From NCBI GenBank assembly GCA_964364925.1, contig CAYIOB010000002.1:1-32784 (forward strand): a DNA stretch of 32,784 nucleotides, written 5' to 3'. Source of the stretch: an uncultured Gammaproteobacteria bacterium. GTDB lineage: Bacteria; Patescibacteriota; Microgenomatia; Levybacterales; UBA12049. The stretch's first letter is position 1; each line of letters begins with the position of its first letter. Shown piece after piece: positions 2,354 to 23,201 of the stretch. The notes beneath the pieces were generated by a model, which saw nothing but the letters and a program-made list of their open reading frames with translations, made no database searches and was not told the DNA's origin. A program made the position numbers and the translations under genes.

Positions 2354-3130
2354 TTAATTAAATTCCAGAAATAAAGGCAGATGGTCGGAGACTTCATCTT
2401 GCAAAACTTTAAAATCTTTTACTTTTATATCTTTTGAAACTAATATATAGTCGGCATATTTATCTTTTCTTGTATGCAGATTACTTCTTGTACTTTTAAC
2501 ATTATGTTTCTTAATTAGATTAACCATTCCCTCTTCCAGCTTAAACATGCTCTTCGTGTTTGGGTTTAGATTAAAATCCCCGCAAAGAATTTTTCTATGT
2601 TTATATGAATCCAAGAATTTTGTTATTTTGTCCGATTGCTCCAATCTTTCCGGTGTATCTTCTTTTGAGTCGGGAATCCAATATCCATGCAGATTGGCAA
2701 TCAAAGTTTCTTTTTTATCTTTCTCTATATCAACAAAATGGATGTTCCTTGGAAAATCCATAAACTGACCATTCCTTACGGGTTTCGTGTGCTCTTGACC
2801 ATATGAGCCATAAACAAAAATATCTCCTTCGGATAAAACCTTTATTGATTTTCTGACAAAAGTAGCCTGTCCAAAAAGAAGTTCGAAATCAACCTTTTCT
2901 TTAGTATCATGTCTTGCAAACATGGGGGCAAAATAACTGCTGTAGTTTTTTAAGATCTTTTCAATATCGGAATAAACATTCGTCTTCATACCATTATGAA
3001 AAATATTTCTGTCGGATTTGAATACTTCCTGAAAACAAAATATATCAACAGTCTTACTTTGCTCTTTTATAAATTCAATCAGTGGTTCGTATACTTGCCC
3101 TCCCCAAATATTCAAAGCAATCAGTTTCAT
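2354..3130 (-). CDS. Endonuclease/exonuclease/phosphatase (EEP) family protein
   Basis: MKLIALNIWGG, DIFCFQEV, CGDFN and a C-terminal SDHLP match the EEP catalytic motif order. Confidence 0.85.
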   Translation of the reverse strand: MKLIALNIWGGQVYEPLIEFIKEQSKTVDIFCFQEVFKSDRNIFHNGMKTNVYSDIEKILKNYSSYFAPMFARHDTKEKVDFELLFGQATFVRKSIKVLSEGDIFVYGSYGQEHTKPVRNGQFMDFPRNIHFVDIEKDKKETLIANLHGYWIPDSKEDTPERLEQSDKITKFLDSYKHRKILCGDFNLNPNTKSMFKLEEGMVNLIKKHNVKSTRSNLHTRKDKYADYILVSKDIKVKDFKVLQDEVSDHLPLFLEFN

Positions 3131-3136
3131 TTGAAT

Positions 3137-3310
3137 ATTATATCACGGGGAAATTTGGAACTAAGGAAAATGGATTATCACAGGTATACAAGTATACCTG
3201 TATTAAAAATGCTTGTGTAATGACATATTGATACATGTTGATACATGGAAACATGCTCAATTAAATAAATACCTAAGTGAAAAATAACTCGGGAGAACTG
3301 GTTTTGCTAA
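3137..3310. repeat. Copy 1 of a ~170-bp direct repeat (promoter/upstream region of the EEP gene); partner at 4260-4425
   Basis: By-eye alignment with 4260-4425 shows long identical blocks (attatcacaggtatacaagtatac, aaataaata, gtgaaaaataa, cgggagaa) with a few indels, roughly three-quarters identical. Confidence 0.7.
3180..3201. promoter_or_regulatory. Perfect 10+2+10 palindrome ACAGGTATAC-AA-GTATACCTGT, operator-like, about 60 nt upstream of the EEP start
   Basis: The two arms are exact reverse complements. The same element recurs at 4307-4328. Confidence 0.5.
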
Positions 3311-3594: not shown

Positions 3595-4251
3595 CTATTC
3601 TTTTCCTTCCCATTCTTTATAAAACTTCTTAAGAAATTTTTCCATATATTTATGTCTTCTAAGAGCGATTTGCCTTGCGGTTTTAGTATTCATTCTGTTT
3701 TTTAAGAGCAGGAGTTTTTCGTAGAAATGATTAATCGTCGGACTTTTGCTATTTTTATATTCTTCAAATGAATTATGCATTGTTGGCTTTGAGTTTGGGT
3801 TGTGAATTTCCTGCCCCATTTTTCCTCCGTAAGCAAAAGTCCTGGCAATTCCAATTGCGCCAATCGCGTCTAATTTATCCGCGTCCTGCACAACCATCCC
3901 TTCTTTTGTTTTCATCTGGGACTTTACGTTTGCTCCCCTAAAACTTACAGTCTTTATAATTTGGTAAACGTGCTCGATATATTTTTCTTCGACATCAAGA
4001 GTTTCGAGCCACGTCCTTGCGGTTTTTGGTCCGATTTCTTCGTCCCCTCCGTGCAATTTCCAGTCGGCAATATCATGCAAAAGAGCAGCTATTTCTATTA
4101 CAAACATCTCAACATTCTTTTCTTTCTTTCCGATATATTTTGCCATTTTCCAAACCCTATAAACATGCCACCAGTCATGTCCGCTACTTTCCCCTTCCAA
4201 GGTTTTCTTGGCATAATCCGCAGTTTTTTGAATGATTATTTTTTTATTCAT
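3595..4251 (-). CDS. HD-domain phosphohydrolase (YedJ/YpgQ-like)
   Basis: HDWWHVYRV, LLHDIADWK, DADKLDAIGAIGIARTF: the His...HD...D metal-binding pattern of the HD superfamily. Confidence 0.85.
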   Translation of the reverse strand: MNKKIIIQKTADYAKKTLEGESSGHDWWHVYRVWKMAKYIGKKEKNVEMFVIEIAALLHDIADWKLHGGDEEIGPKTARTWLETLDVEEKYIEHVYQIIKTVSFRGANVKSQMKTKEGMVVQDADKLDAIGAIGIARTFAYGGKMGQEIHNPNSKPTMHNSFEEYKNSKSPTINHFYEKLLLLKNRMNTKTARQIALRRHKYMEKFLKKFYKEWEGKE

Positions 4252-4259
4252 TGATGCTA

Positions 4260-4425
4260 ATTATACCACGAGGGAGAAATTTGAAACTAAAGAAAAAATG
4301 ATTATCACAGGTATACAAGTATACTTGTGGTAAAAAGGTTATGTAGTGATGTATCAATACATTAAAACATAATCAACTAAATAAATATCGGGGTGAAAAT
4401 AAACGCGGGAGAAATTGGAGATTAG
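4260..4425. repeat. Copy 2 of the ~170-bp direct repeat (promoter/upstream region of the HD gene)
   Basis: See 3137-3310. Same orientation, 1.12 kb downstream, and in the same position relative to the start codon of a minus-strand gene. Confidence 0.7.
4307..4328. promoter_or_regulatory. Second copy of the palindromic operator-like site (ACAGGTATAC-AA-GTATACtTGT, one arm mismatch)
   Basis: Matches 3180-3201 at 21 of 22 positions. Centred about 66 nt upstream of the HD gene ATG. Confidence 0.5.
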
Positions 4426-14177: not shown

Positions 14178-15263
14178 TTAAGCGCCTATCTTGAATTCAA
14201 TTACATCTCCGTCTTTGACTATATAATCCCTTCCTTCAAGCCTGTCCTTTCCGTGTTCCCTTGCACCTTTCCAACCATTAAATTGAACAAAATCGTCAAA
14301 GGAAACAACTTCCGCTTTTATAAATTTTTTAGTAAAGTCCGTATGAATAACCCCTGCGGCATTTACTGCATTTGTTCCTTTTTTGATAGTCCATGCCCTT
14401 ACTTCTTTTTCTCCACAAGTTAAAAAAGAAATTAAATTTAAAATTTTATAACCTTCTTTAATAACCCTTTCCAACCCTGAAGTTTCAAAACCCAAATCCT
14501 TTAGATATTCTTTCTGTTCTTCTTGCGATAATTCCGAAAGCTCGCTTTCTGTTTTTGCGCAAACCGGAATTGTATCTTCGCCGTAATCTTTACCTAAATC
14601 TTCCTCGTCAACGTTTGCAACCGTAAACATCGGTTTAGCAGTTAAAAGCTGCAAGCTTTTTGCCGCAGTTTTTTCATCTTCGTGTAATTCAACGTCTTTT
14701 GCGAGTTTGCCTTGGTCAAGTGCGATTTTAAACTTTTGGACCGCCGACCATCTATGTACGTCTTCCTTCGTGGGACTTTTTTTGGGCTCCTGCTGTTTTT
14801 CCAGAGTCTGCAAATCTGCCAAGATTAATTCCGTGTTAACCACTTCGAAATCATTTTTCGCGTCTTTAGAGCTGTCGGAACGCACAACATTCCCATCTTT
14901 AAAATACCGGACAACCTGACAAATTGCGTCCGCCTCCCTGATATGGGACAAAAATTTATTTCCCAATCCTTCTCCAACAGCCGCTCCTTTTACCAAGCCT
15001 GCAATATCTACAAATTGAACGACCGCCGGTACTATCGGCGGAAGTGAAACCCTGAGCGAAGTCGAAGGGACTGACAGTTCATTTGCTGTAATTTCTGCTA
15101 ATTTTTGAAGGCGGGTATCAGGAACAGGTACAACGCCGATGTTTGGCTCTATTGTGGCAAAAGGATAATTAGCAACAAACGCCTGTTGTTTCCTCAACAG
15201 CGCGTTAAACAGCGTAGACTTTCCAACGTTCGGTAAACCCACTATACCTATAGACAAACTCAT
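14178..15263 (-). CDS. ychF: Ribosome-binding ATPase YchF
   Basis: IGIVGLPNVGKSTLFNALL P-loop, DIAGLVKGA, C-terminal TGS-like VIHTDF..FIKAEV..GKDY.V.DGDV. TATAAT lies 8 nt upstream of the ATG. Confidence 0.92.
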   Translation of the reverse strand: MSLSIGIVGLPNVGKSTLFNALLRKQQAFVANYPFATIEPNIGVVPVPDTRLQKLAEITANELSVPSTSLRVSLPPIVPAVVQFVDIAGLVKGAAVGEGLGNKFLSHIREADAICQVVRYFKDGNVVRSDSSKDAKNDFEVVNTELILADLQTLEKQQEPKKSPTKEDVHRWSAVQKFKIALDQGKLAKDVELHEDEKTAAKSLQLLTAKPMFTVANVDEEDLGKDYGEDTIPVCAKTESELSELSQEEQKEYLKDLGFETSGLERVIKEGYKILNLISFLTCGEKEVRAWTIKKGTNAVNAAGVIHTDFTKKFIKAEVVSFDDFVQFNGWKGAREHGKDRLEGRDYIVKDGDVIEFKIGA

Positions 15264-15287
15264 ACTGAAGAATTATAGCAGAATTAT

Positions 15288-15455
15288 TTACTCTTTAGTC
15301 GTACCTACTATACAACCACAATTTGCACAATAAACCAAAAGGAAACTAACTCCATTAATCAACTGTCTTTTTGTTTTTAACCCGCTGTGATACTCATTAG
15401 GGTGCAACGTTGTCTCACCGCATCCTGGACATTTTGGATCTTTATCGTTTGGCAT
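15288..15455 (-). CDS. Unannotated 55-aa zinc-ribbon protein (CPGC...CANC), translationally coupled to the upstream ATPase
   Basis: My translation: MPNDKDPKCPGCGETTLHPNEYHSGLKTKRQLINGVSFLLVYCANCGCIVGTTKE. The SD GGAGGTGA lies inside the last codons of the ATPase gene, 7 nt before this ATG. The ORF is below the track's size cut-off. Confidence 0.55.
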   Translation of the reverse strand: MPNDKDPKCPGCGETTLHPNEYHSGLKTKRQLINGVSFLLVYCANCGCIVGTTKE

Positions 15456-15458
15456 AAA

Positions 15459-17099
15459 TTATTCACCTCCAAATTGTTTTTCTTTTGCTTTTTTTAGGGC
15501 ATTTATAAACACGCCCATATTAGCTGTGAAATCTTGCTCTGAAATCCTATTAGCAACATCTTCTGCGTATGCTACTTTTCCAGGATTATTGTTAATATCA
15601 TTAGGCTCGGCCTTATACGGAGAGGGGTAATATTTTTCAAGACTGGATTCAGATAGCTCAAAATATCTACCATCAGTTAAAAGCTCTGCATGATCTGTTT
15701 TAAACTTATTATATTTTTCGTTATCACCTGTCGAACCCGAACTAGCGTCGGCAACGACTACAACTCGTGAAGAATAAGGATTGGTTTTAGCTTTAAAATA
15801 TTGATATGCCATATCTATAAAAGTAATGCTCTTTGATTGCTTGGTAACATCCCCATTTGCTGGAACTATTTGTATATTTTTGAAATCAGTTGGATAAAAT
15901 CTTTGAATTATCTTTTGTAAAAATTTTACTTCTGAGTATCCCTCGACAATTAAAATATTGGAAGGAAGCAATAAGTCTTTGGGATTACCACCTAAAAGAT
16001 CAAAAACCACTAATGGTTTTTCAGAATCACTAATTCGTGTAACATTTGTAATCTTATTTGTTTTCTCAACCTTAAAAATATACTGATCAGAATTATTATC
16101 TACAACTAATACTGATGAATGAGTATTGATTAAAACTTGGTCTCCTCCCGATGAAACATCAACGAGTGCGTCTTTTAGAGCTCTTTGTGCTGTTGGATGC
16201 AAATGTAACTCTGCTTCATCTATTAAAAAAAGGAAATCTTTGGATTCGCCTTTAGTTTTCCTAAAATCAGCATATGTTTGAATTATCGCTAGCATTAAAG
16301 CCCTCTGCATGCCATCGCCTTTTTCCGAAGAATCGTTCTCTATTCCATCATTAATCGTAGTCCTGAATTTCTTAAACAAATCCTCCAATTCAGGATTTTC
16401 AACCTTAAATTTTACATCTATACAATCTGGGAATTGTTTTTTCAAAAATTCTGCAACCGTTAGTCCTACTTTATCTATTTCTTTTCTAATATCTGTTATG
16501 TCTTCTGGGTCGGAAGGATCTCCAAAGAGCTCGTTGAACATTTTTTTAAATTCTCCATATTTTCCGTCTGTTTCAAGCATACTTTCCAAAACAGCAGAGA
16601 GAATCTTGCTTATCGGAGTAGCTTTGCCATACTTTGCTACATCGTCAAGAAGTTTTTTTGTACTTACAAATTCTAGAGTTGGAAGAAATTGTCGCCAAGT
16701 GCTGTCCCTACCCAAAGGGTTTTCCCACTCATTAGTTTTTGGATTAAAAAGTTGCCTGTCTTCTCCATCCTCATATGAACTTAATCTACGAATTTTGATT
16801 AAATCTTCCGTCTCAAAAATTTCTTCCATTAGTTTTTTTTGCTTTTCATTTGTAAAAAAACTTAATGCTTTTTGTAATCCCGAAAATTCTAACTCTACTA
16901 GAACTTCTTTTGTTTCGTCTTTCATGAATGATATGTCTTCCATCTCTCCTGATGGAACATAAAACCAATCAATTGCTTCAAATAGGTTTGTTTTACCGTG
17001 ATTATTTTGTCCAACAAAAATGTTAAACTGAGAAATTTCTAAATTCTCTATCACTTCTATTGATCTAAAATTCTTAACCGTTACCTTGGTTATTTTCAT
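15459..17099 (-). CDS. OLD-family-like ATP-dependent nuclease: ABC/AAA_15-type ATPase with a Toprim-like C-terminal domain
   Basis: KVTVKNFRSIE, Walker A GQNNHGKTN, signature-like GDGMQRAL, Walker B/D-loop FLFLIDEAELHLHP, H-loop INTHSS. The C-terminal ILIVEGYSEVKF...VPANGD...VVVVADAS resembles OLD/DUF4435 Toprim. ATG at 17099 is preferred over the TTG at 17108. Confidence 0.75.
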   Translation of the reverse strand: MKITKVTVKNFRSIEVIENLEISQFNIFVGQNNHGKTNLFEAIDWFYVPSGEMEDISFMKDETKEVLVELEFSGLQKALSFFTNEKQKKLMEEIFETEDLIKIRRLSSYEDGEDRQLFNPKTNEWENPLGRDSTWRQFLPTLEFVSTKKLLDDVAKYGKATPISKILSAVLESMLETDGKYGEFKKMFNELFGDPSDPEDITDIRKEIDKVGLTVAEFLKKQFPDCIDVKFKVENPELEDLFKKFRTTINDGIENDSSEKGDGMQRALMLAIIQTYADFRKTKGESKDFLFLIDEAELHLHPTAQRALKDALVDVSSGGDQVLINTHSSVLVVDNNSDQYIFKVEKTNKITNVTRISDSEKPLVVFDLLGGNPKDLLLPSNILIVEGYSEVKFLQKIIQRFYPTDFKNIQIVPANGDVTKQSKSITFIDMAYQYFKAKTNPYSSRVVVVADASSGSTGDNEKYNKFKTDHAELLTDGRYFELSESSLEKYYPSPYKAEPNDINNNPGKVAYAEDVANRISEQDFTANMGVFINALKKAKEKQFGGE

Positions 17100-17218
17100 A
17101 TAATCCAATCATTGTGGATGGGCGGGGCTTTTTGAGGTCTCGTCCAGGCACATTTTTATTACCTGAAATTTTACTGTGAATATATTAGCAGAAACTTTCA
17201 GAGATTGCTAGTATCAAA

Positions 17219-17241
17219 CTCCCCTTTTTGCCTGTTGTCAA
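17219..17241 (-). promoter_or_regulatory. Motif copy A: TTGACAACAGGCAAAAAGGGGAG (minus strand), upstream of the ATPase gene; its TGA is the stop of the 151-aa ORF
   Basis: 23 of 23 identical to 18390-18412. Confidence 0.6.
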
Positions 17242-17693
17242 TTGCTTTGGAGGGATATGACCAGAGCGCGAAGTTCTTCGGATGGTCTTCTTGTTCCAAG
17301 TAAAGAGGCCGGTATTTTGCCGGATAAACTTTCGTTTGGTTTAGTCCACCAATCGCCACGAGCTAAGTCATCCCGAAGACTTAATGCCGATACCCTGACT
17401 AACCAATGTACCCCACCATTTTCTTCAAACTGAAACGTCGGATAGACATATCCTTTCGTTGTTTTAATCCTAATAGCACCTATACCTGTTCCCAATCTAT
17501 ATCTTCGTTCGCCGGACATTTCAGATTGTCTTACTGTTGGATACTCATTTAATATTCTCGCTGCAAGCTCTATCCATCTTTCCCTATCATGTCCAGAAAG
17601 CGATGAGGGTATTACCGGAATGATTGAGTCAGTCACCCGAATAGGTCTTTTCCCATCTAATGCTTCAGTCATAGCTGTAAAAGATACACCCAT
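17238..17693 (-). CDS. MbcA/ParS/Xre-antitoxin toxin-binding-domain (DUF2384)-like protein, 151 aa, no HTH recognisable
   Basis: The C-terminal half YVYPTFQFEENGGVHWLV...WWTKPNESLSGKIPASLLGT..SEELRALVISL fits my recollection of the YPxFQF...W..PN..L.G..P..LL pattern of this family. The N-terminal half is unassigned. Confidence 0.5.
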   Translation of the reverse strand: MGVSFTAMTEALDGKRPIRVTDSIIPVIPSSLSGHDRERWIELAARILNEYPTVRQSEMSGERRYRLGTGIGAIRIKTTKGYVYPTFQFEENGGVHWLVRVSALSLRDDLARGDWWTKPNESLSGKIPASLLGTRRPSEELRALVISLQSN

Positions 17694-17709
17694 TTTTGCC
17701 TCTTGTCAA
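17691..17709 (-). promoter_or_regulatory. Motif copy E (short form): TTGACAAGAGGCAAAA directly followed by the ATG of the 151-aa ORF
   Basis: The minus strand reads TTGACAAGAGGCAAAAATG. AGAGG could serve as the SD. Confidence 0.45.
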
Positions 17710-17777
17710 CTTGAGAATTTGTTGATTTACTCTTCAAACTACTCTTCAACCCCAGGGGTTGAGCCTCGAAGATATTT

Positions 17778-17797
17778 CTCTTTTTGCCTGTTGTTAA
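17778..17797 (-). promoter_or_regulatory. Motif copy C (degenerate): TTAACAACAGGCAAAAAGAG; its TAA is the stop of the 193-aa ORF
   Basis: Two substitutions relative to copies A and B over the shared 20 nt. Confidence 0.5.
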
Positions 17798-18375
17798 TCG
17801 GATTCCCAATAATTTGGGTCACTGAATCCTTCTCTAAAAAGAAAATAGGAAGCAACAAATCCCGAAAATACAGAATTTTCAAAAATAGATTCATCCTGCC
17901 CAGTTATTTCCTCATCTAATGCCTGATAAGCTTCTTTTTCTAACATTACGAACAAGCCTCTCCGGACTTCTTCCTCTCTATCTGCTCCGGGAATACGCGA
18001 TCCCGGATAACTTCCGTAAACACTAATCAATCTATCATGTGCCAATGCGTCATAAATCTGAACAAATTCAAGACTTAATATAGGAATTTTTTGCTTACCG
18101 GCTTTTTCTTTAAAAATTTCATACGCTAGTGTAATTCCAATTCTAAATCCTTCATTTTCTAATCCCGAAAAATTGTTACTAATTGCCATTAGGTATCCAT
18201 TTGCATAAGGATTTTCCACATCAAGCAGCGGAGCTTTTAGGCTTAAATATTCGTCCCACGTTTTGTTAGAATCTTCAAATAAAGGCCTGACAACTGCTAT
18301 AACAGCATCCGCACCAATGGGATACTTAACTATTGAATCTTGAGGAATCTGCGAAACCCTTGCTTCAACTGTCAT
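17794..18375 (-). CDS. Hypothetical protein (193 aa), orphan
   Basis: ATG-to-TAA ORF preceded by TTGACA-N17-TATAAG and 8 nt. I recognise no family motif, and no R..E..S pattern of RES toxins is evident. Confidence 0.55.
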   Translation of the reverse strand: MTVEARVSQIPQDSIVKYPIGADAVIAVVRPLFEDSNKTWDEYLSLKAPLLDVENPYANGYLMAISNNFSGLENEGFRIGITLAYEIFKEKAGKQKIPILSLEFVQIYDALAHDRLISVYGSYPGSRIPGADREEEVRRGLFVMLEKEAYQALDEEITGQDESIFENSVFSGFVASYFLFREGFSDPNYWESD

Positions 18376-18383
18376 GAAAATTT

Positions 18384-18412
18384 CTTATACTCCCCTTTTT
18401 GCCTGTTGTCAA
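18384..18412 (-). promoter_or_regulatory. Motif copy B within a complete promoter: TTGACA-acaggcaaaaaggggag-TATAAG, 8 nt before the ATG at 18375
   Basis: -35 and -10 hexamers with a 17-nt spacer. The spacer and -35 together are the conserved motif. Confidence 0.6.
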
Positions 18413-18423
18413 ACGCAAAGCTA

Positions 18424-19536
18424 CTATTCTAGATATTTTTTGAAAAATTCTACAGTGTTTTGCATGGCTTGATTAAAAATTGCGCCGCTTAAATTATGGC
18501 CGCCGCTTGGATATTCGTTTAGTTCATGAGGTATCGAAGTTTGATCGAGAAGACTATTGAAATTCCTGCTGTAACGGATATCAACAACTGCGTCATCCAA
18601 TGCGTGATTCAGCGAAATTGCGCCTTTAATACCATCTAGGTAATTTGTCATGGGAACTTGTTTCCAGAAATCTGAACTAGGATCAAACTGACCGTATTTC
18701 TCAAACATTTCATTTCTTTTTTTTCTGCTTAGTGAGTCAGATGGCGGCGGCTGGTAAGAATTGTCTTCAATACTAAACTCCGAAAAATCCGAATACGTGT
18801 AAACTGCTCCCGCAAAGATTACAATTGCCGGGATTTGAGGACTTGCTGCTAATGCCCGCGCAATAACATTCCCCGCCATTGAGTGCCCCCACAGCCCAAT
18901 TGCATCCGGATTAACAAAATCCGAAGCCTGCAAAGCAGCCCTTGCGTTAAGAGTATCAATAATATAATCTGACGAATAATATCCTCCACCAGGCTCTCCC
19001 TCACTCTTTGCGTGCCCCCGAAGGTCAATTTTAAAAACAACGAATCCGTTTTTTGCCAGATAATCAACGTATACTGAATAATTTTCTAACGTCTGATAAT
19101 TTTGCGGAGGGATATAACCGTGGACAAAAACAATTGCCGGCCATCCGCCGACAGGCTTTTTTCCGGGCGGAACTGTTAATAAACCATTTATTCTCAAACC
19201 GTCCGAAGTATAACTTGCCAGATAAGATGTAAAGCCAGAATTCCTGCTGCCGACTTCCCTCATTTCAGAAAGATTGCTCTCGTAAGAACGCTGTCTTAGG
19301 TAAGGGATTGTAAGCTCCTGAAAAGGAAAAGGGGTTGGGGTCGGTAAAACGCCGGAAACTTCATTAGCTTTGGACGCCGTTTCGCTTAAGCTGCCATTAT
19401 TCTTAATGGAAAAGTAAAAAGTCCCAAAAACAAATAGGTTAAAAAACAAAAACGCACCCAAAAAAAGTAAAAATCTTTTTTTCTTTTCCGGTGTTTTTAA
19501 TATTTTAAGTTCATCTTTAACTTCTTCTTCTTCCAT
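18424..19536 (-). CDS. Membrane-anchored alpha/beta hydrolase (S9 prolyl-oligopeptidase / dienelactone-hydrolase-like)
   Basis: N-terminal TM helix, WPAIVFVHGYIPP, nucleophile elbow GLWGHSMAGN, C-terminal GGHNL. Paralog of 22115-23161. Confidence 0.85.
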   Translation of the reverse strand: MEEEEVKDELKILKTPEKKKRFLLFLGAFLFFNLFVFGTFYFSIKNNGSLSETASKANEVSGVLPTPTPFPFQELTIPYLRQRSYESNLSEMREVGSRNSGFTSYLASYTSDGLRINGLLTVPPGKKPVGGWPAIVFVHGYIPPQNYQTLENYSVYVDYLAKNGFVVFKIDLRGHAKSEGEPGGGYYSSDYIIDTLNARAALQASDFVNPDAIGLWGHSMAGNVIARALAASPQIPAIVIFAGAVYTYSDFSEFSIEDNSYQPPPSDSLSRKKRNEMFEKYGQFDPSSDFWKQVPMTNYLDGIKGAISLNHALDDAVVDIRYSRNFNSLLDQTSIPHELNEYPSGGHNLSGAIFNQAMQNTVEFFKKYLE

Positions 19537-22114: not shown

Positions 22115-23161
22115 CTATCGAAAAATTCTACTGATCTTTGCCGCTGCTATACCAAAATTTGAAGCCATATTATGGTCATCACCCGGATATGTATATAACT
22201 CTACTGTTTTCCCGGCCTCCTGCATTTGCTTTTCCAAAGTTTGTGAAAACTCTACAGGGACTGAGATATCAGCAGTTCCATGATGAAGCTGAATTGGCCC
22301 TGAAATATCTTTTAGGAATGAATTAGCAGAAAGACCGTTCCAAAAAGTTGGATTCTGGGAAGGTTCTCCAAACTGCACTGATAAAGTTTGCCTCCAGCTT
22401 CCTCCCCTAGTTGACGGAGTGGGGGTTGCGGAGAGGGCTCCGGATGGTGCCCTTCTCCTCCATCTTTCAAAAAGATCCTGATATGAAACTACAACTCCGG
22501 CCCAGATAACACCTGCTTTTATATCTTTGTTTACCACCATTGCTCTAAGAGTAATAAACCCTCCCATTGAATGTCCCCACATGCCAATTTTTTGAATATT
22601 AACTCCTGGATATTTTTTTAAAGACGCAAGAGCGTTTAAAACATCAATCGTATAACCGTTTGATCCATAAGCTCCTGATGGATTTCCTTCTGAATCTCCA
22701 TGTCCTCTGTAATCTGGTCTAAGTAAAATATATCCATTTCTTGAAAATGCATCTGTATAAGCAATATATCTTTCAGTTGTTCTATATTGTGCGGGTGGAA
22801 TATATCCATGGTTAAAAACAATTGCCGGGAATCCCTTTTCTGGCGGCGTACCATTTGGAACAGTAAATAAAGCATATATTTTAAGACCTTCTGATAGGTA
22901 CGAAACAATGTATCTTTTGTAGTTACTGCCTGGTGTAAGAGTTTCTTCAATTACCAAATCGCTTCCAGGATAATTTCCTTTTTTAAGCGCTTCTATTGAA
23001 AGACTGAATGGTTCTTCTTGCATCTCTCCACCCATATTGTCTGTAAAATCTGTTTGGGGAGAAGTATTTAACTTTGAGATATCATTGTATTTTGAATATA
23101 CAAAAACCGCGGAGAATAATATAAAAATTAAAGCTAAAAATATTACCTTACTTTTAAACAT
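22115..23161 (-). CDS. Membrane-anchored alpha/beta hydrolase (S9-like), paralog of 18424-19536
   Basis: FPAIVFNHGYIPPAQYRT and GMWGHSMGGF parallel the paralog. ATG at 23161 is preferred because TGcTATAAT sits 6 nt upstream; the track start is 23179. Confidence 0.85.
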   Translation of the reverse strand: MFKSKVIFLALIFILFSAVFVYSKYNDISKLNTSPQTDFTDNMGGEMQEEPFSLSIEALKKGNYPGSDLVIEETLTPGSNYKRYIVSYLSEGLKIYALFTVPNGTPPEKGFPAIVFNHGYIPPAQYRTTERYIAYTDAFSRNGYILLRPDYRGHGDSEGNPSGAYGSNGYTIDVLNALASLKKYPGVNIQKIGMWGHSMGGFITLRAMVVNKDIKAGVIWAGVVVSYQDLFERWRRRAPSGALSATPTPSTRGGSWRQTLSVQFGEPSQNPTFWNGLSANSFLKDISGPIQLHHGTADISVPVEFSQTLEKQMQEAGKTVELYTYPGDDHNMASNFGIAAAKISRIFR

Positions 23162-23178
23162 TAAAAAATTATAGCACA

Positions 23179-23201
23179 TTCCCCTTTTTGCTTCTTGTCA
23201 A
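23179..23201 (-). promoter_or_regulatory. Motif copy D: TTGACAAGAAGCAAAAAGGGGAA upstream of the second hydrolase
   Basis: Matches the 17219/18390 motif at most positions and is followed by TGcTATAAT. Confidence 0.5.

Follow-up and report, generated by a model that had tools for sequence, protein, structure and literature searches.

A Class 1-Type OLD-Family Nuclease Gene in a Probable Insertion Hotspot Beside ychF in a Groundwater Patescibacteria Genome

Single-Gene OLD Systems and the Locus

Single-gene defense by OLD-family proteins is established for P2 Old and TsOLD (PMC10568477, PMC7049728) and for Vc OLD (PMC12392090). The locus described here lies within the first 32,784 nucleotides (nt) of contig CAYIOB010000002.1 (assembly GCA_964364925.1); this whole stretch of analyzed DNA is called the window. 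It holds an OLD gene and three small open reading frames (ORFs), p193, p151, and zn55, and the original prediction took the four together as a novel defense or toxin–antitoxin cassette. The explanation that we favor, and hold to be probable, is that p193 and ychF flank a variable hotspot for insertions in a groundwater member of the Candidate Phyla Radiation (CPR)/Patescibacteria, where a single-gene Class 1-type OLD was acquired horizontally, and that the locus is not a four-gene system. On this reading, OLD alone among the genes has a clear function.

The window OLD resembles the Class 1 proteins (P2 Old, Thermus scotoductus OLD [PDB 6P74], Vibrio cholerae Vc OLD, and Escherichia coli YbjD) in being a single polypeptide of about 540 amino acids (aa) with an N-terminal ABC ATPase that carries a helical insert, plus a Toprim domain at the C terminus (predicted in the case of the window OLD), and in having no helicase, reverse transcriptase, or separate Toprim partner. 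Class 1 OLD genes have been described as not proximal to other defense genes (PMC10568477), whereas the subfamily of the window OLD is often wedged among restriction–modification (R-M) genes, and the window OLD itself is followed by a coupled 55-aa zinc-ribbon ORF unseen in relatives.

The same ATPase–Toprim superfamily includes GajA of Gabija (Class 2), the retron Eco8 effector (Class 3), and AriA–AriB of PARIS (Class 4). Among the best structural matches of the window OLD are GajA and the Eco8 effector, and the hidden Markov models (HMMs) of GajA, AriA, and Eco8 all match its ATPase region, but the Gabija, PARIS, and retron scores fall far below the family cutoffs (e.g., 69.7 bits versus 250 for NCBIfam retron_eff_Eco8). 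Gabija was rejected on gene context, with no GajB/UvrD-like helicase present and zn55 (55 aa) and ychF as the genes downstream of OLD. PARIS was rejected because the 546-aa protein itself carries the predicted Toprim domain and its neighbors include no AriB-like (Toprim/DUF4435) ORF. A type I-B (Eco8) retron was also rejected, as there is no reverse transcriptase in the flanking ORFs and no Rfam match in the window.

A Predicted Full-Length OLD-Family ATPase–Toprim Nuclease

All four ORFs were confirmed as codirectional on the minus strand at the coordinates first given, so the layout of the original prediction stands as a description of the genes, although not as one conserved system.

zn55: 15288–15455, minus strand; 55-aa ORF with a CxxC…CxxC zinc ribbon
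OLD: 15459–17099, minus strand; 546 aa from an ATG start; ATPase and predicted C-terminal Toprim
p151: 17238–17693, minus strand, as a 151-aa ORF; probably 17238–17672, 144 aa from M8
p193: 17794–18375, minus strand; 193 aa, conserved lineage-specific gene

For OLD, an upstream TTG at 17108 is unsupported, and the homologues all begin MKI…. The reading of this protein as an OLD-like ATPase with a Toprim tail was upheld at the levels of family, fold, and conserved residues. It matches the PADLOC "Old" model PDLC02358 (E 8.2e-63; residues 4–419 on profile positions 2–423 of 578) as well as Pfam AAA_15 (E 6.7e-31) and AAA_21 (E 2.1e-16). The match to Pfam OLD-like_TOPRIM (E 0.0015) is below the gathering score, and the Toprim assignment is made from the PADLOC model, the conserved residues, and the predicted fold. 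The AlphaFold2 model has a predicted local distance difference test score (pLDDT) of 81, and its best full-length Foldseek matches are GajA (8u7i), TsOLD (6p74), and the retron Eco8 effector. An ordinary repair ATPase of the RecF/Rad50 kind was rejected because such matches are limited to the first ~100 residues and a Toprim tail is present.

Across an alignment of 48 homologues, the residues of the ATPase motifs GQNNHGKT (K36, Walker A), LIDEAE (D294/E295, Walker B), and NTHS (H327, H-loop) are invariant, as are E386 (the Toprim glutamate), G416, E488, and K508; D451 is nearly invariant. In a phmmer alignment, E386 and E390 lie opposite E377 and D381 of TsOLD, which are metal ligands in that enzyme (PMC7049728). 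Beyond position 416 the equivalence with TsOLD is by motif and not by superposition; on that basis S486-x-E488 matches TsOLD S478-x-E480, and either K496 or K508 is a candidate basic residue. The likeness to TsOLD includes a full-length fold match to 6P74 and putative counterparts of E377, D381, D431, S478, and E480 (PMC7049728). The differences are that the window OLD is only about 16% identical to TsOLD, that the second Asp of the D431/D433 pair is missing, and that a Lys, not R487, is the candidate transition-state residue. Because the second Asp is not conserved, we go no further than to infer nuclease competence.

The 546-aa protein is, on its sequence and model, a predicted full-length OLD-family ATPase–Toprim nuclease, an ABC-type ATPase with an inserted helical region. 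It is predicted to be Class 1-type, that is, single-gene, by the published context-based scheme (PMC10568477), since no helicase, reverse transcriptase, or separate AriB lies nearby. The OLD of this locus is a further representative of an already known kind of single-gene OLD defense. The suggestion of a novel architecture does not hold for OLD, because the gene alone matches the named PADLOC "Old" and Class 1 OLD (PMC10568477). The value of the locus lies mainly in providing an example of an OLD defense nuclease from the poorly studied CPR/Patescibacteria.

OLD Neighborhoods in Other Genomes

The window OLD has more than 1500 homologues, of about 535–555 aa, and the top 120 are nearly all 533–558 aa long, with 44–69% identity. 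They are found in CPR groups (Roizmanbacteria, Taylorbacteria, Saccharimonadales, and "Patescibacteria") and in ordinary bacteria too (Desulfonauticus, Ferrigenium, and Aquilonibacter). Gene neighborhoods were compared at 85 loci with homologues 43–69% identical to the window OLD. A metagenome scan with an alignment of OLD homologues gave 80 loci, and a scan of genome contigs with the single OLD protein gave two distant loci only. P0001, with an OLD 97% identical on a 2.3-kb contig, was left out of the comparison.

Across the 85 loci there is no relative of zn55, p151, or p193 (tblastn, E ≤ 10), no p151-family member by profile HMM, and no small ORF with two CxxC pairs within 200 nt downstream of OLD. 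At the closest homologue (68% identity), a convergent gene on the opposite strand begins 2 nt past the OLD stop codon. The p151–OLD–zn55 arrangement was found elsewhere only in L001, a second assembly of the same sequence (Hainich groundwater). This is also the only other place where all four genes occur together, and in relatives the quartet was never found; the novel four-gene cassette of the original prediction is not borne out.

The recurrent neighbors of OLD are instead an N6_N4 DNA methyltransferase (14 loci), DUF2130 (11 loci), and ResIII with RE_endonuc (7 loci), along with MvaI/BcnI, DpnI-like, GmrSD/HNH, RhuM, and HEPN genes. These neighbors vary strongly among loci, as expected of defense islands, and no UvrD, reverse transcriptase, or AriB occurs among them in the 85 loci. 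At 23 of the 72 loci analyzed (including L004/L005, L006, L049/L050, L066, L073, L078, and L092), OLD stands beside or between the N6_N4 methyltransferase and ResIII/RE_endonuc, which are type III R-M-like, and DUF2130; gene overlaps of −3 to −25 nt at these R-M-like loci suggest operons. The frequent placement of this widespread ~540-aa subfamily amid type III R-M-like genes and DUF2130 departs from the textbook view of Class 1 OLDs as isolated genes. No paper mentioning DUF2384 together with OLD nucleases was found in the literature searched, a silence that reflects the lack of a recurrent association rather than an overlooked system.

An Insertion Between p193 and ychF

One side of the locus is flanked by ychF at 14178–15263 (YchF-GTPase_C, E 3.7e-36). 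On the other side of the OLD module, p193 has only five homologues, at 75–88% identity, and no match in Pfam, PADLOC, NCBIfam, PHROG, or PDB. In the related contigs L007, L008, L010, and L011, p193 is followed directly by ychF, with gaps of 43–340 nt, and in L007 the downstream synteny is that of the window (S6, SSB, S18, a 252-aa gene, a CtpB-like peptidase, and MurB). Because p193 stands directly before ychF in relatives, the DNA with p151, OLD, and zn55 is read as an insertion, in line with the modular acquisition that had been proposed. By the same comparison, p193 is a resident gene of the lineage that neighbors ychF and lies outside the inserted DNA. Two features bear on this junction:

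Extra DNA relative to relatives: about 15286–17773 (~2.5 kb), minus strand; from the junction comparison with L007, L008, and L010
Palindrome TCAACCCC-T-GGGGTTGA: 17746–17762, minus strand, between p193 and p151; small, GC-rich, with no T-tract, read from the sequence

The limits of the insertion are a copy of a 24-nt motif (described below) that overlaps the p193 stop codon and the extended −10 box of ychF (TGCTATAAT). On the left, similarity to the relatives continues through …GATTAACAACAGGCAAAAAG…, and on the right it restarts at TTCTG(C/T)TATAATTCTTCAGTATG.

Across six related contigs the p193–ychF junction shows four different states. In L007, L008, and L010, p193 is directly next to ychF; in L011 there is a 340-nt insert with an extra copy of the motif; in L009 there is an inverted 350-aa gene, and the motif is split by a 22-nt insert; and in the window and L001 the junction holds p151, OLD, and zn55. 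A pairing of p193 with p151 was considered and rejected, as p193 is unlike the gene upstream of the p151 homologue in Levybacteria. The palindrome at 17746–17762 is possibly a transcript-end hairpin; it was not called in a terminator scan.

Base composition gives a picture different from that first proposed, in which the two upstream genes were more G+C-rich than the host genes. This holds marginally for p151, whose G+C of 0.432 is just above the host range of 0.323–0.430, and fails for p193, which at 0.369 is below the host mean of 0.382. The real compositional outlier is OLD, on the low side (G+C 0.332; G+C at third codon positions, GC3, 0.241), and was placed below the host range.

p151, a Small Protein with a DUF2384-Like Domain

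An exhaustive HMMER search found 12 relatives of p151, a set that a word-index search missed, returning the query alone. The best relative (59% identity, 145 aa) aligns from query residue 8. This alignment and the promoter geometry, in which the first ATG falls inside the promoter motif, indicate that the true start is probably M8 (17672), giving 144 aa.

The DUF2384-like character proposed for p151 applies to its family and fold but not to its own Pfam score, which is below threshold (Xre_MbcA_ParS_C, E 0.0013, 19.1 bits against a gathering score of 24.5); its NCBIfam scores are likewise below threshold. Eight of the 13 family members match Xre_MbcA_ParS_C (best E 1.9e-6), and one matches Rv2175c_C (E 2e-10) and also Xre-MbcA-ParS_M. 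Two motifs, G..YP.FQF and WW(T)xPNxxLxGxxPASLL, mark the family. The best PDB matches of the family profile, all weak (E 0.1 to 1.3), are ParS, Xre (the RES–Xre antitoxin), and Rv2175c.

The AlphaFold2 model of p151 (pLDDT 84) has as its top Foldseek match and best whole-protein structural match Mycobacterium tuberculosis Rv2175c, a winged-helix DNA-binding protein (PDB 2KFS; template modeling score 0.52 in both directions, E 0.012). Both have the G..YP.FQF wing motif and, after it, a W..P(N/D) helix, while differing in that sequence similarity is marginal (profile E 1.3) and no adjoining Ser/Thr kinase was seen among the neighboring genes scanned. Over its final ~54 residues, the model fits the DUF2384 domains of Xre–RES, VPA0769, MbcA, NatR, and ParS to about 2 Å, with weak Foldseek E-values of 0.03 to 1. 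At the level of family and fold, the p151 proteins are best described as a small predicted family that joins a winged helix like that of Rv2175c to a C-terminal domain of the DUF2384-like type.

The likeness of p151 to the DUF2384 antitoxins of the RES–Xre, MbcTA, ParST, and NatRT systems is confined to these C-terminal ~54 residues and their WW(T)xPNxxLxGxxPASLL signature. It differs from them in that the N-terminal half is Rv2175c-like and not an Xre-type helix-turn-helix, and in that no RES, ADP-ribosyltransferase (ART), or other toxin gene is adjacent in the window or at three homologue loci (L094, L095, and L097). As first reported, no RES gene is present: none of the four proteins matches RES by Pfam, PADLOC, or NCBIfam. 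Neither OLD nor RES lies near the p151 homologues at the three loci, and RES and ART are absent both from the precomputed Pfam annotation of the called genes there and from a direct Pfam scan of four genes adjoining the homologues. In L097 the homologue is alone. These contexts argue against partnership with a toxin or with OLD. The likeliest role for p151 is that of a DNA-binding regulator or of an orphan protein resembling an antitoxin, and the wider point is that a small family of orphan Rv2175c/DUF2384-like proteins without toxins exists.

Two of the homologue loci have further features. In L094, a Phd/YefM–ParE pair (3–551) is immediately upstream of the closest p151 homologue (59% identity), which puts the family in accessory, toxin–antitoxin-rich DNA of another CPR contig. 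In L095 (5001–7658; Candidatus Levybacteria, GCA_018061075.1), there is a homologue with 49% identity some 1 kb upstream of ychF; it belongs to a ychF–S6–SSB–S18–CtpB block that has the same synteny as the window and is without OLD or RES. The region upstream of ychF may be a recurrent home of the p151 family across CPR classes.

zn55, a Locus-Specific Zinc-Ribbon ORF

The tight coupling of a 55-aa CxxC…CxxC ORF to OLD was confirmed: zn55 has two CxxC pairs and begins 3 nt past the OLD stop codon. Its Shine–Dalgarno sequence, GGAGGTG, lies within the last OLD codons and ends 8 nt before the ATG. Translation of zn55 is plausible given this strong ribosome-binding site, and zn55 is probably cotranslated with OLD. 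Its Pfam zinc-ribbon matches are all below threshold, including Lar_restr_allev (E 0.001, 19.7 bits against a gathering score of 28.6), and identification as a Lar restriction-alleviation protein was rejected as a subthreshold generic zinc-ribbon cross-match. No significant match was found in Pfam, NCBIfam, PADLOC, PHROGs, phages, or plasmids, and no homologue in the 85 OLD loci; zn55 is by these searches a singleton, a putative locus-specific zinc-ribbon ORF.

A Conserved 24-nt Motif with Promoter-Like Geometry

The motif said to mark every gene boundary is real: the window has four matches to the 24-nt sequence TTGACAACAGGCAAAAAGGGGAGT at three or fewer mismatches, against 0 in 100 shuffles, and a more diverged copy at 17774–17797. 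It is missing, however, between OLD and zn55 and between zn55 and ychF.

M0: 18389–18412, minus strand; p193 promoter-like, TTGACA-N17-TATAAG-N8-ATG, leaderless geometry
M1: 17774–17797, minus strand; overlaps the p193 stop codon (TAA within TTAACA); TTAACA-17-TATCTT
M2: 17686–17709, minus strand; p151 promoter-like, TTGACA-N17-TATCTT-N8-ATG(M8); 10/12 match to consensus
M3: 17218–17241, minus strand; identical to M0 at 24/24 positions; overlaps the p151 stop codon (TGA within TTGACA)
Fifth copy: 23178–23201, minus strand, ~5 kb away; upstream of an alpha/beta-hydrolase gene, 22 nt before TATAAT

The M0 arrangement recurs upstream of p193 in L007–L011, so that p193 has TTGACA-N17-TATAA(G/A)-N8-ATG in six contigs, and M1 corresponds in position to the motif upstream of ychF in relatives. 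The −35/17/−10/8/ATG layout is also found at the p151 homologues in L094 and L095. M3 lies 118 nt upstream of the OLD ATG, and this 118-nt leader has no significant RNA structure (z = −0.21) and no Rfam match. The stop codons of p193 and p151 are both inside the motif in the same register, the L094 p151 homologue ends within the same motif, and p151 homologues are flanked by it on both sides in four lineages.

A position-weight matrix finds the motif in the window, L007–L011, L094, and L097, with weaker forms in L095, and nowhere in 615 kb of other, unrelated loci. Its copies gather around p193 and genes of the p151 family; those outside the window include L007 358–381 and 973–996; L094 561–584, 669–692, and 1140–1163; and L097 4745–4768, 4942–4965, 5465–5488, and 5915–5938. 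A scan of viral contigs was set aside, as its 5 matches are about the number expected by chance on a rough estimate.

Because the −35/17/−10/8/ATG geometry is kept at p193 (six contigs) and at p151 and its homologues (window, L094, and L095), the motif is, as a sequence-level prediction, a clade-specific promoter-type element with an unusually conserved spacer and leaderless geometry. The motif may also serve a p151-type protein as its operator or be a substrate of recombination. As a signature of a cassette the motif fails, since it is a lineage-specific promoter-like element that also stands at unrelated genes. What it marks, as a conserved clade-specific element, is a gene-content hotspot in these tiny genomes.

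Two observations concern individual copies. A "long form" (L009 630–690; L094 about 640–692) has TTGACAACAGGC and AAAAAG(G/A)G parted by an insert of 22–28 nt, and the inserts in the two different contigs are related (GAGC(G/A)AAGCGAAGT(G/A)C…). At the fifth copy, the mechanical ATG of ORF 22115–23179, at 23179, falls within the motif; translation more likely begins at the ATG at 23161 (MFKSKVIFLALIF…, signal-peptide-like), 6 nt past the box TGTGCTATAAT. The product, an alpha/beta hydrolase, shares its Pfam hydrolase families with the one at 18424–19536 and is probably a paralogue.

Proposed Mechanism and Rival Explanations

With a horizontally acquired single-gene OLD in a variable hotspot, the expected workings are drawn from the homologous proteins TsOLD, P2 Old, and Vc OLD (PMC7049728, PMC10568477, PMC12392090). 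OLD would dimerize through the helical insert of its ABC ATPase head and would bind and hydrolyze ATP using K36, D294/E295, and H327. Its metal-dependent Toprim site, made up of E386, E390, D451, S486/E488, and a basic K496 or K508, would nick or degrade invading phage DNA, with the outcome that phage replication would be blocked. Each module would bring or use its own copy of the motif, which would drive leaderless transcripts, and identical copies could be recombination substrates. p151 would be an unrelated small protein that occurs on its own in other CPR genomes and most likely binds DNA.

Several points weigh against this explanation. The place of the second Asp of the TsOLD D431/D433 pair reads DAS in the window OLD and DKP in the subfamily consensus. 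The arrangement is known from a single population (the window and L001). At ychF in relatives and at 23178–23201, the motif and the −10 box are 22–27 nt apart, so the motif is not a simple −35 box everywhere. Finally, a young, lineage-restricted functional unit could account for p151, OLD, and zn55 standing next to one another and for the close coupling of OLD to zn55.

Such a lineage-specific unit of three genes, in which p151 would repress or neutralize OLD (compare Xre-type antitoxins and defense regulators) and zn55 would be a cotranslated accessory or sensor subunit, is nevertheless unlikely. It would suit the codirectional genes, inserted together relative to the ancestral p193–ychF state, and the strong zn55 Shine–Dalgarno sequence inside the OLD 3′ end. 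The C-terminal domain of p151 superposes on toxin-binding DUF2384 domains, and the layout of the motif copies would be in keeping with an operator recognized by a DNA-binding protein of the p151 type, with M3, the twin of the p193 promoter copy, 118 nt ahead of OLD and related copies around p151 homologues in four lineages. Yet the genes do not co-occur in any of the 85 OLD loci or the three p151 loci, the OLD subfamily clearly functions without such partners elsewhere, and zn55 is without any detected homologue. p151, moreover, has a promoter of its own, is separated from OLD by 118 nt, and may have inserted separately. All of these points apply as well to the reading of p193, p151, OLD, and zn55 as one novel defense or toxin–antitoxin cassette, which we regard as scarcely credible: codirectional genes and a motif at three of the five boundaries stand in its favor, but p193, with its own promoter, is conserved beside ychF without the other three in four related contigs, and it does not resemble the gene that lies upstream of the p151 homologue in Levybacteria. 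The locus is a caution: being neighbors in a single genome does not turn genes into a system.

The motif could also be understood primarily as a recombination site bounding mobile gene modules in this CPR clade, a form of cassette shuffling in which promoter activity is secondary. Copies bound every variable p193–ychF segment, whether in the window, in L011 with its 340-nt insert and extra copy, or in L009 with its split motif, and the order motif–spacer–motif–p151–motif is common to the window and L094 despite different upstream genes (p193 versus ParE). The identity of M0 and M3 (24/24), the stop codons of p193 and p151 placed in one register within the motif, and its absence from the 615 kb of unrelated loci point the same way. 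At the locus, though, no gene for a recombinase, integrase, or transposase is apparent, the right-hand junction (zn55/ychF) is without the motif, and the motif is not palindromic and has the geometry of an ordinary sigma-70 promoter at several genes; few related genomes were sampled. On balance a primary recombination role is improbable. A combination, with p151-family proteins as cognate DNA-binding regulators of the motif, one of them brought in along with a motif copy so as to govern OLD and zn55, and the copies also acting as crossover points that shuffle the hotspot modules, seems to us unlikely as well.

Other Features of the Window

Beyond p193, the flank opposite ychF holds a group of genes of the envelope type, which encode an alpha/beta hydrolase, a YkuD L,D-transpeptidase, and a C39-like peptidase that has TPR repeats. 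The intergenic regions of the window have no Rfam match at the gathering score or at E ≤ 1, and a structured RNA or riboswitch in them was rejected because of this and because the OLD leader folds no better than shuffled sequences.

The ~65-nt regions upstream of the genes at 2354–3130 and 3595–4251 (window 3131–3200 and 4252–4321, minus strand) form another repeated promoter region, which is not related to the 24-nt motif. They are near-duplicates and read …acttgtatacctgtgataatc…caaatttc…gtg(a/g)tataat.

At many genes of the window, a TATAAT-like box that often carries an extended TG ends 6–8 nt before the ATG, and there is no Shine–Dalgarno sequence (e.g., the starts at 3130, 4251, 9952, 12164, 15263, and 23161). 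With this spacing at so many genes, leaderless transcription seems to be the norm here, which suggests that leaderless mRNAs predominate in the host genome; zn55, with its strong GGAGGTG, is an exception to starts of this type.

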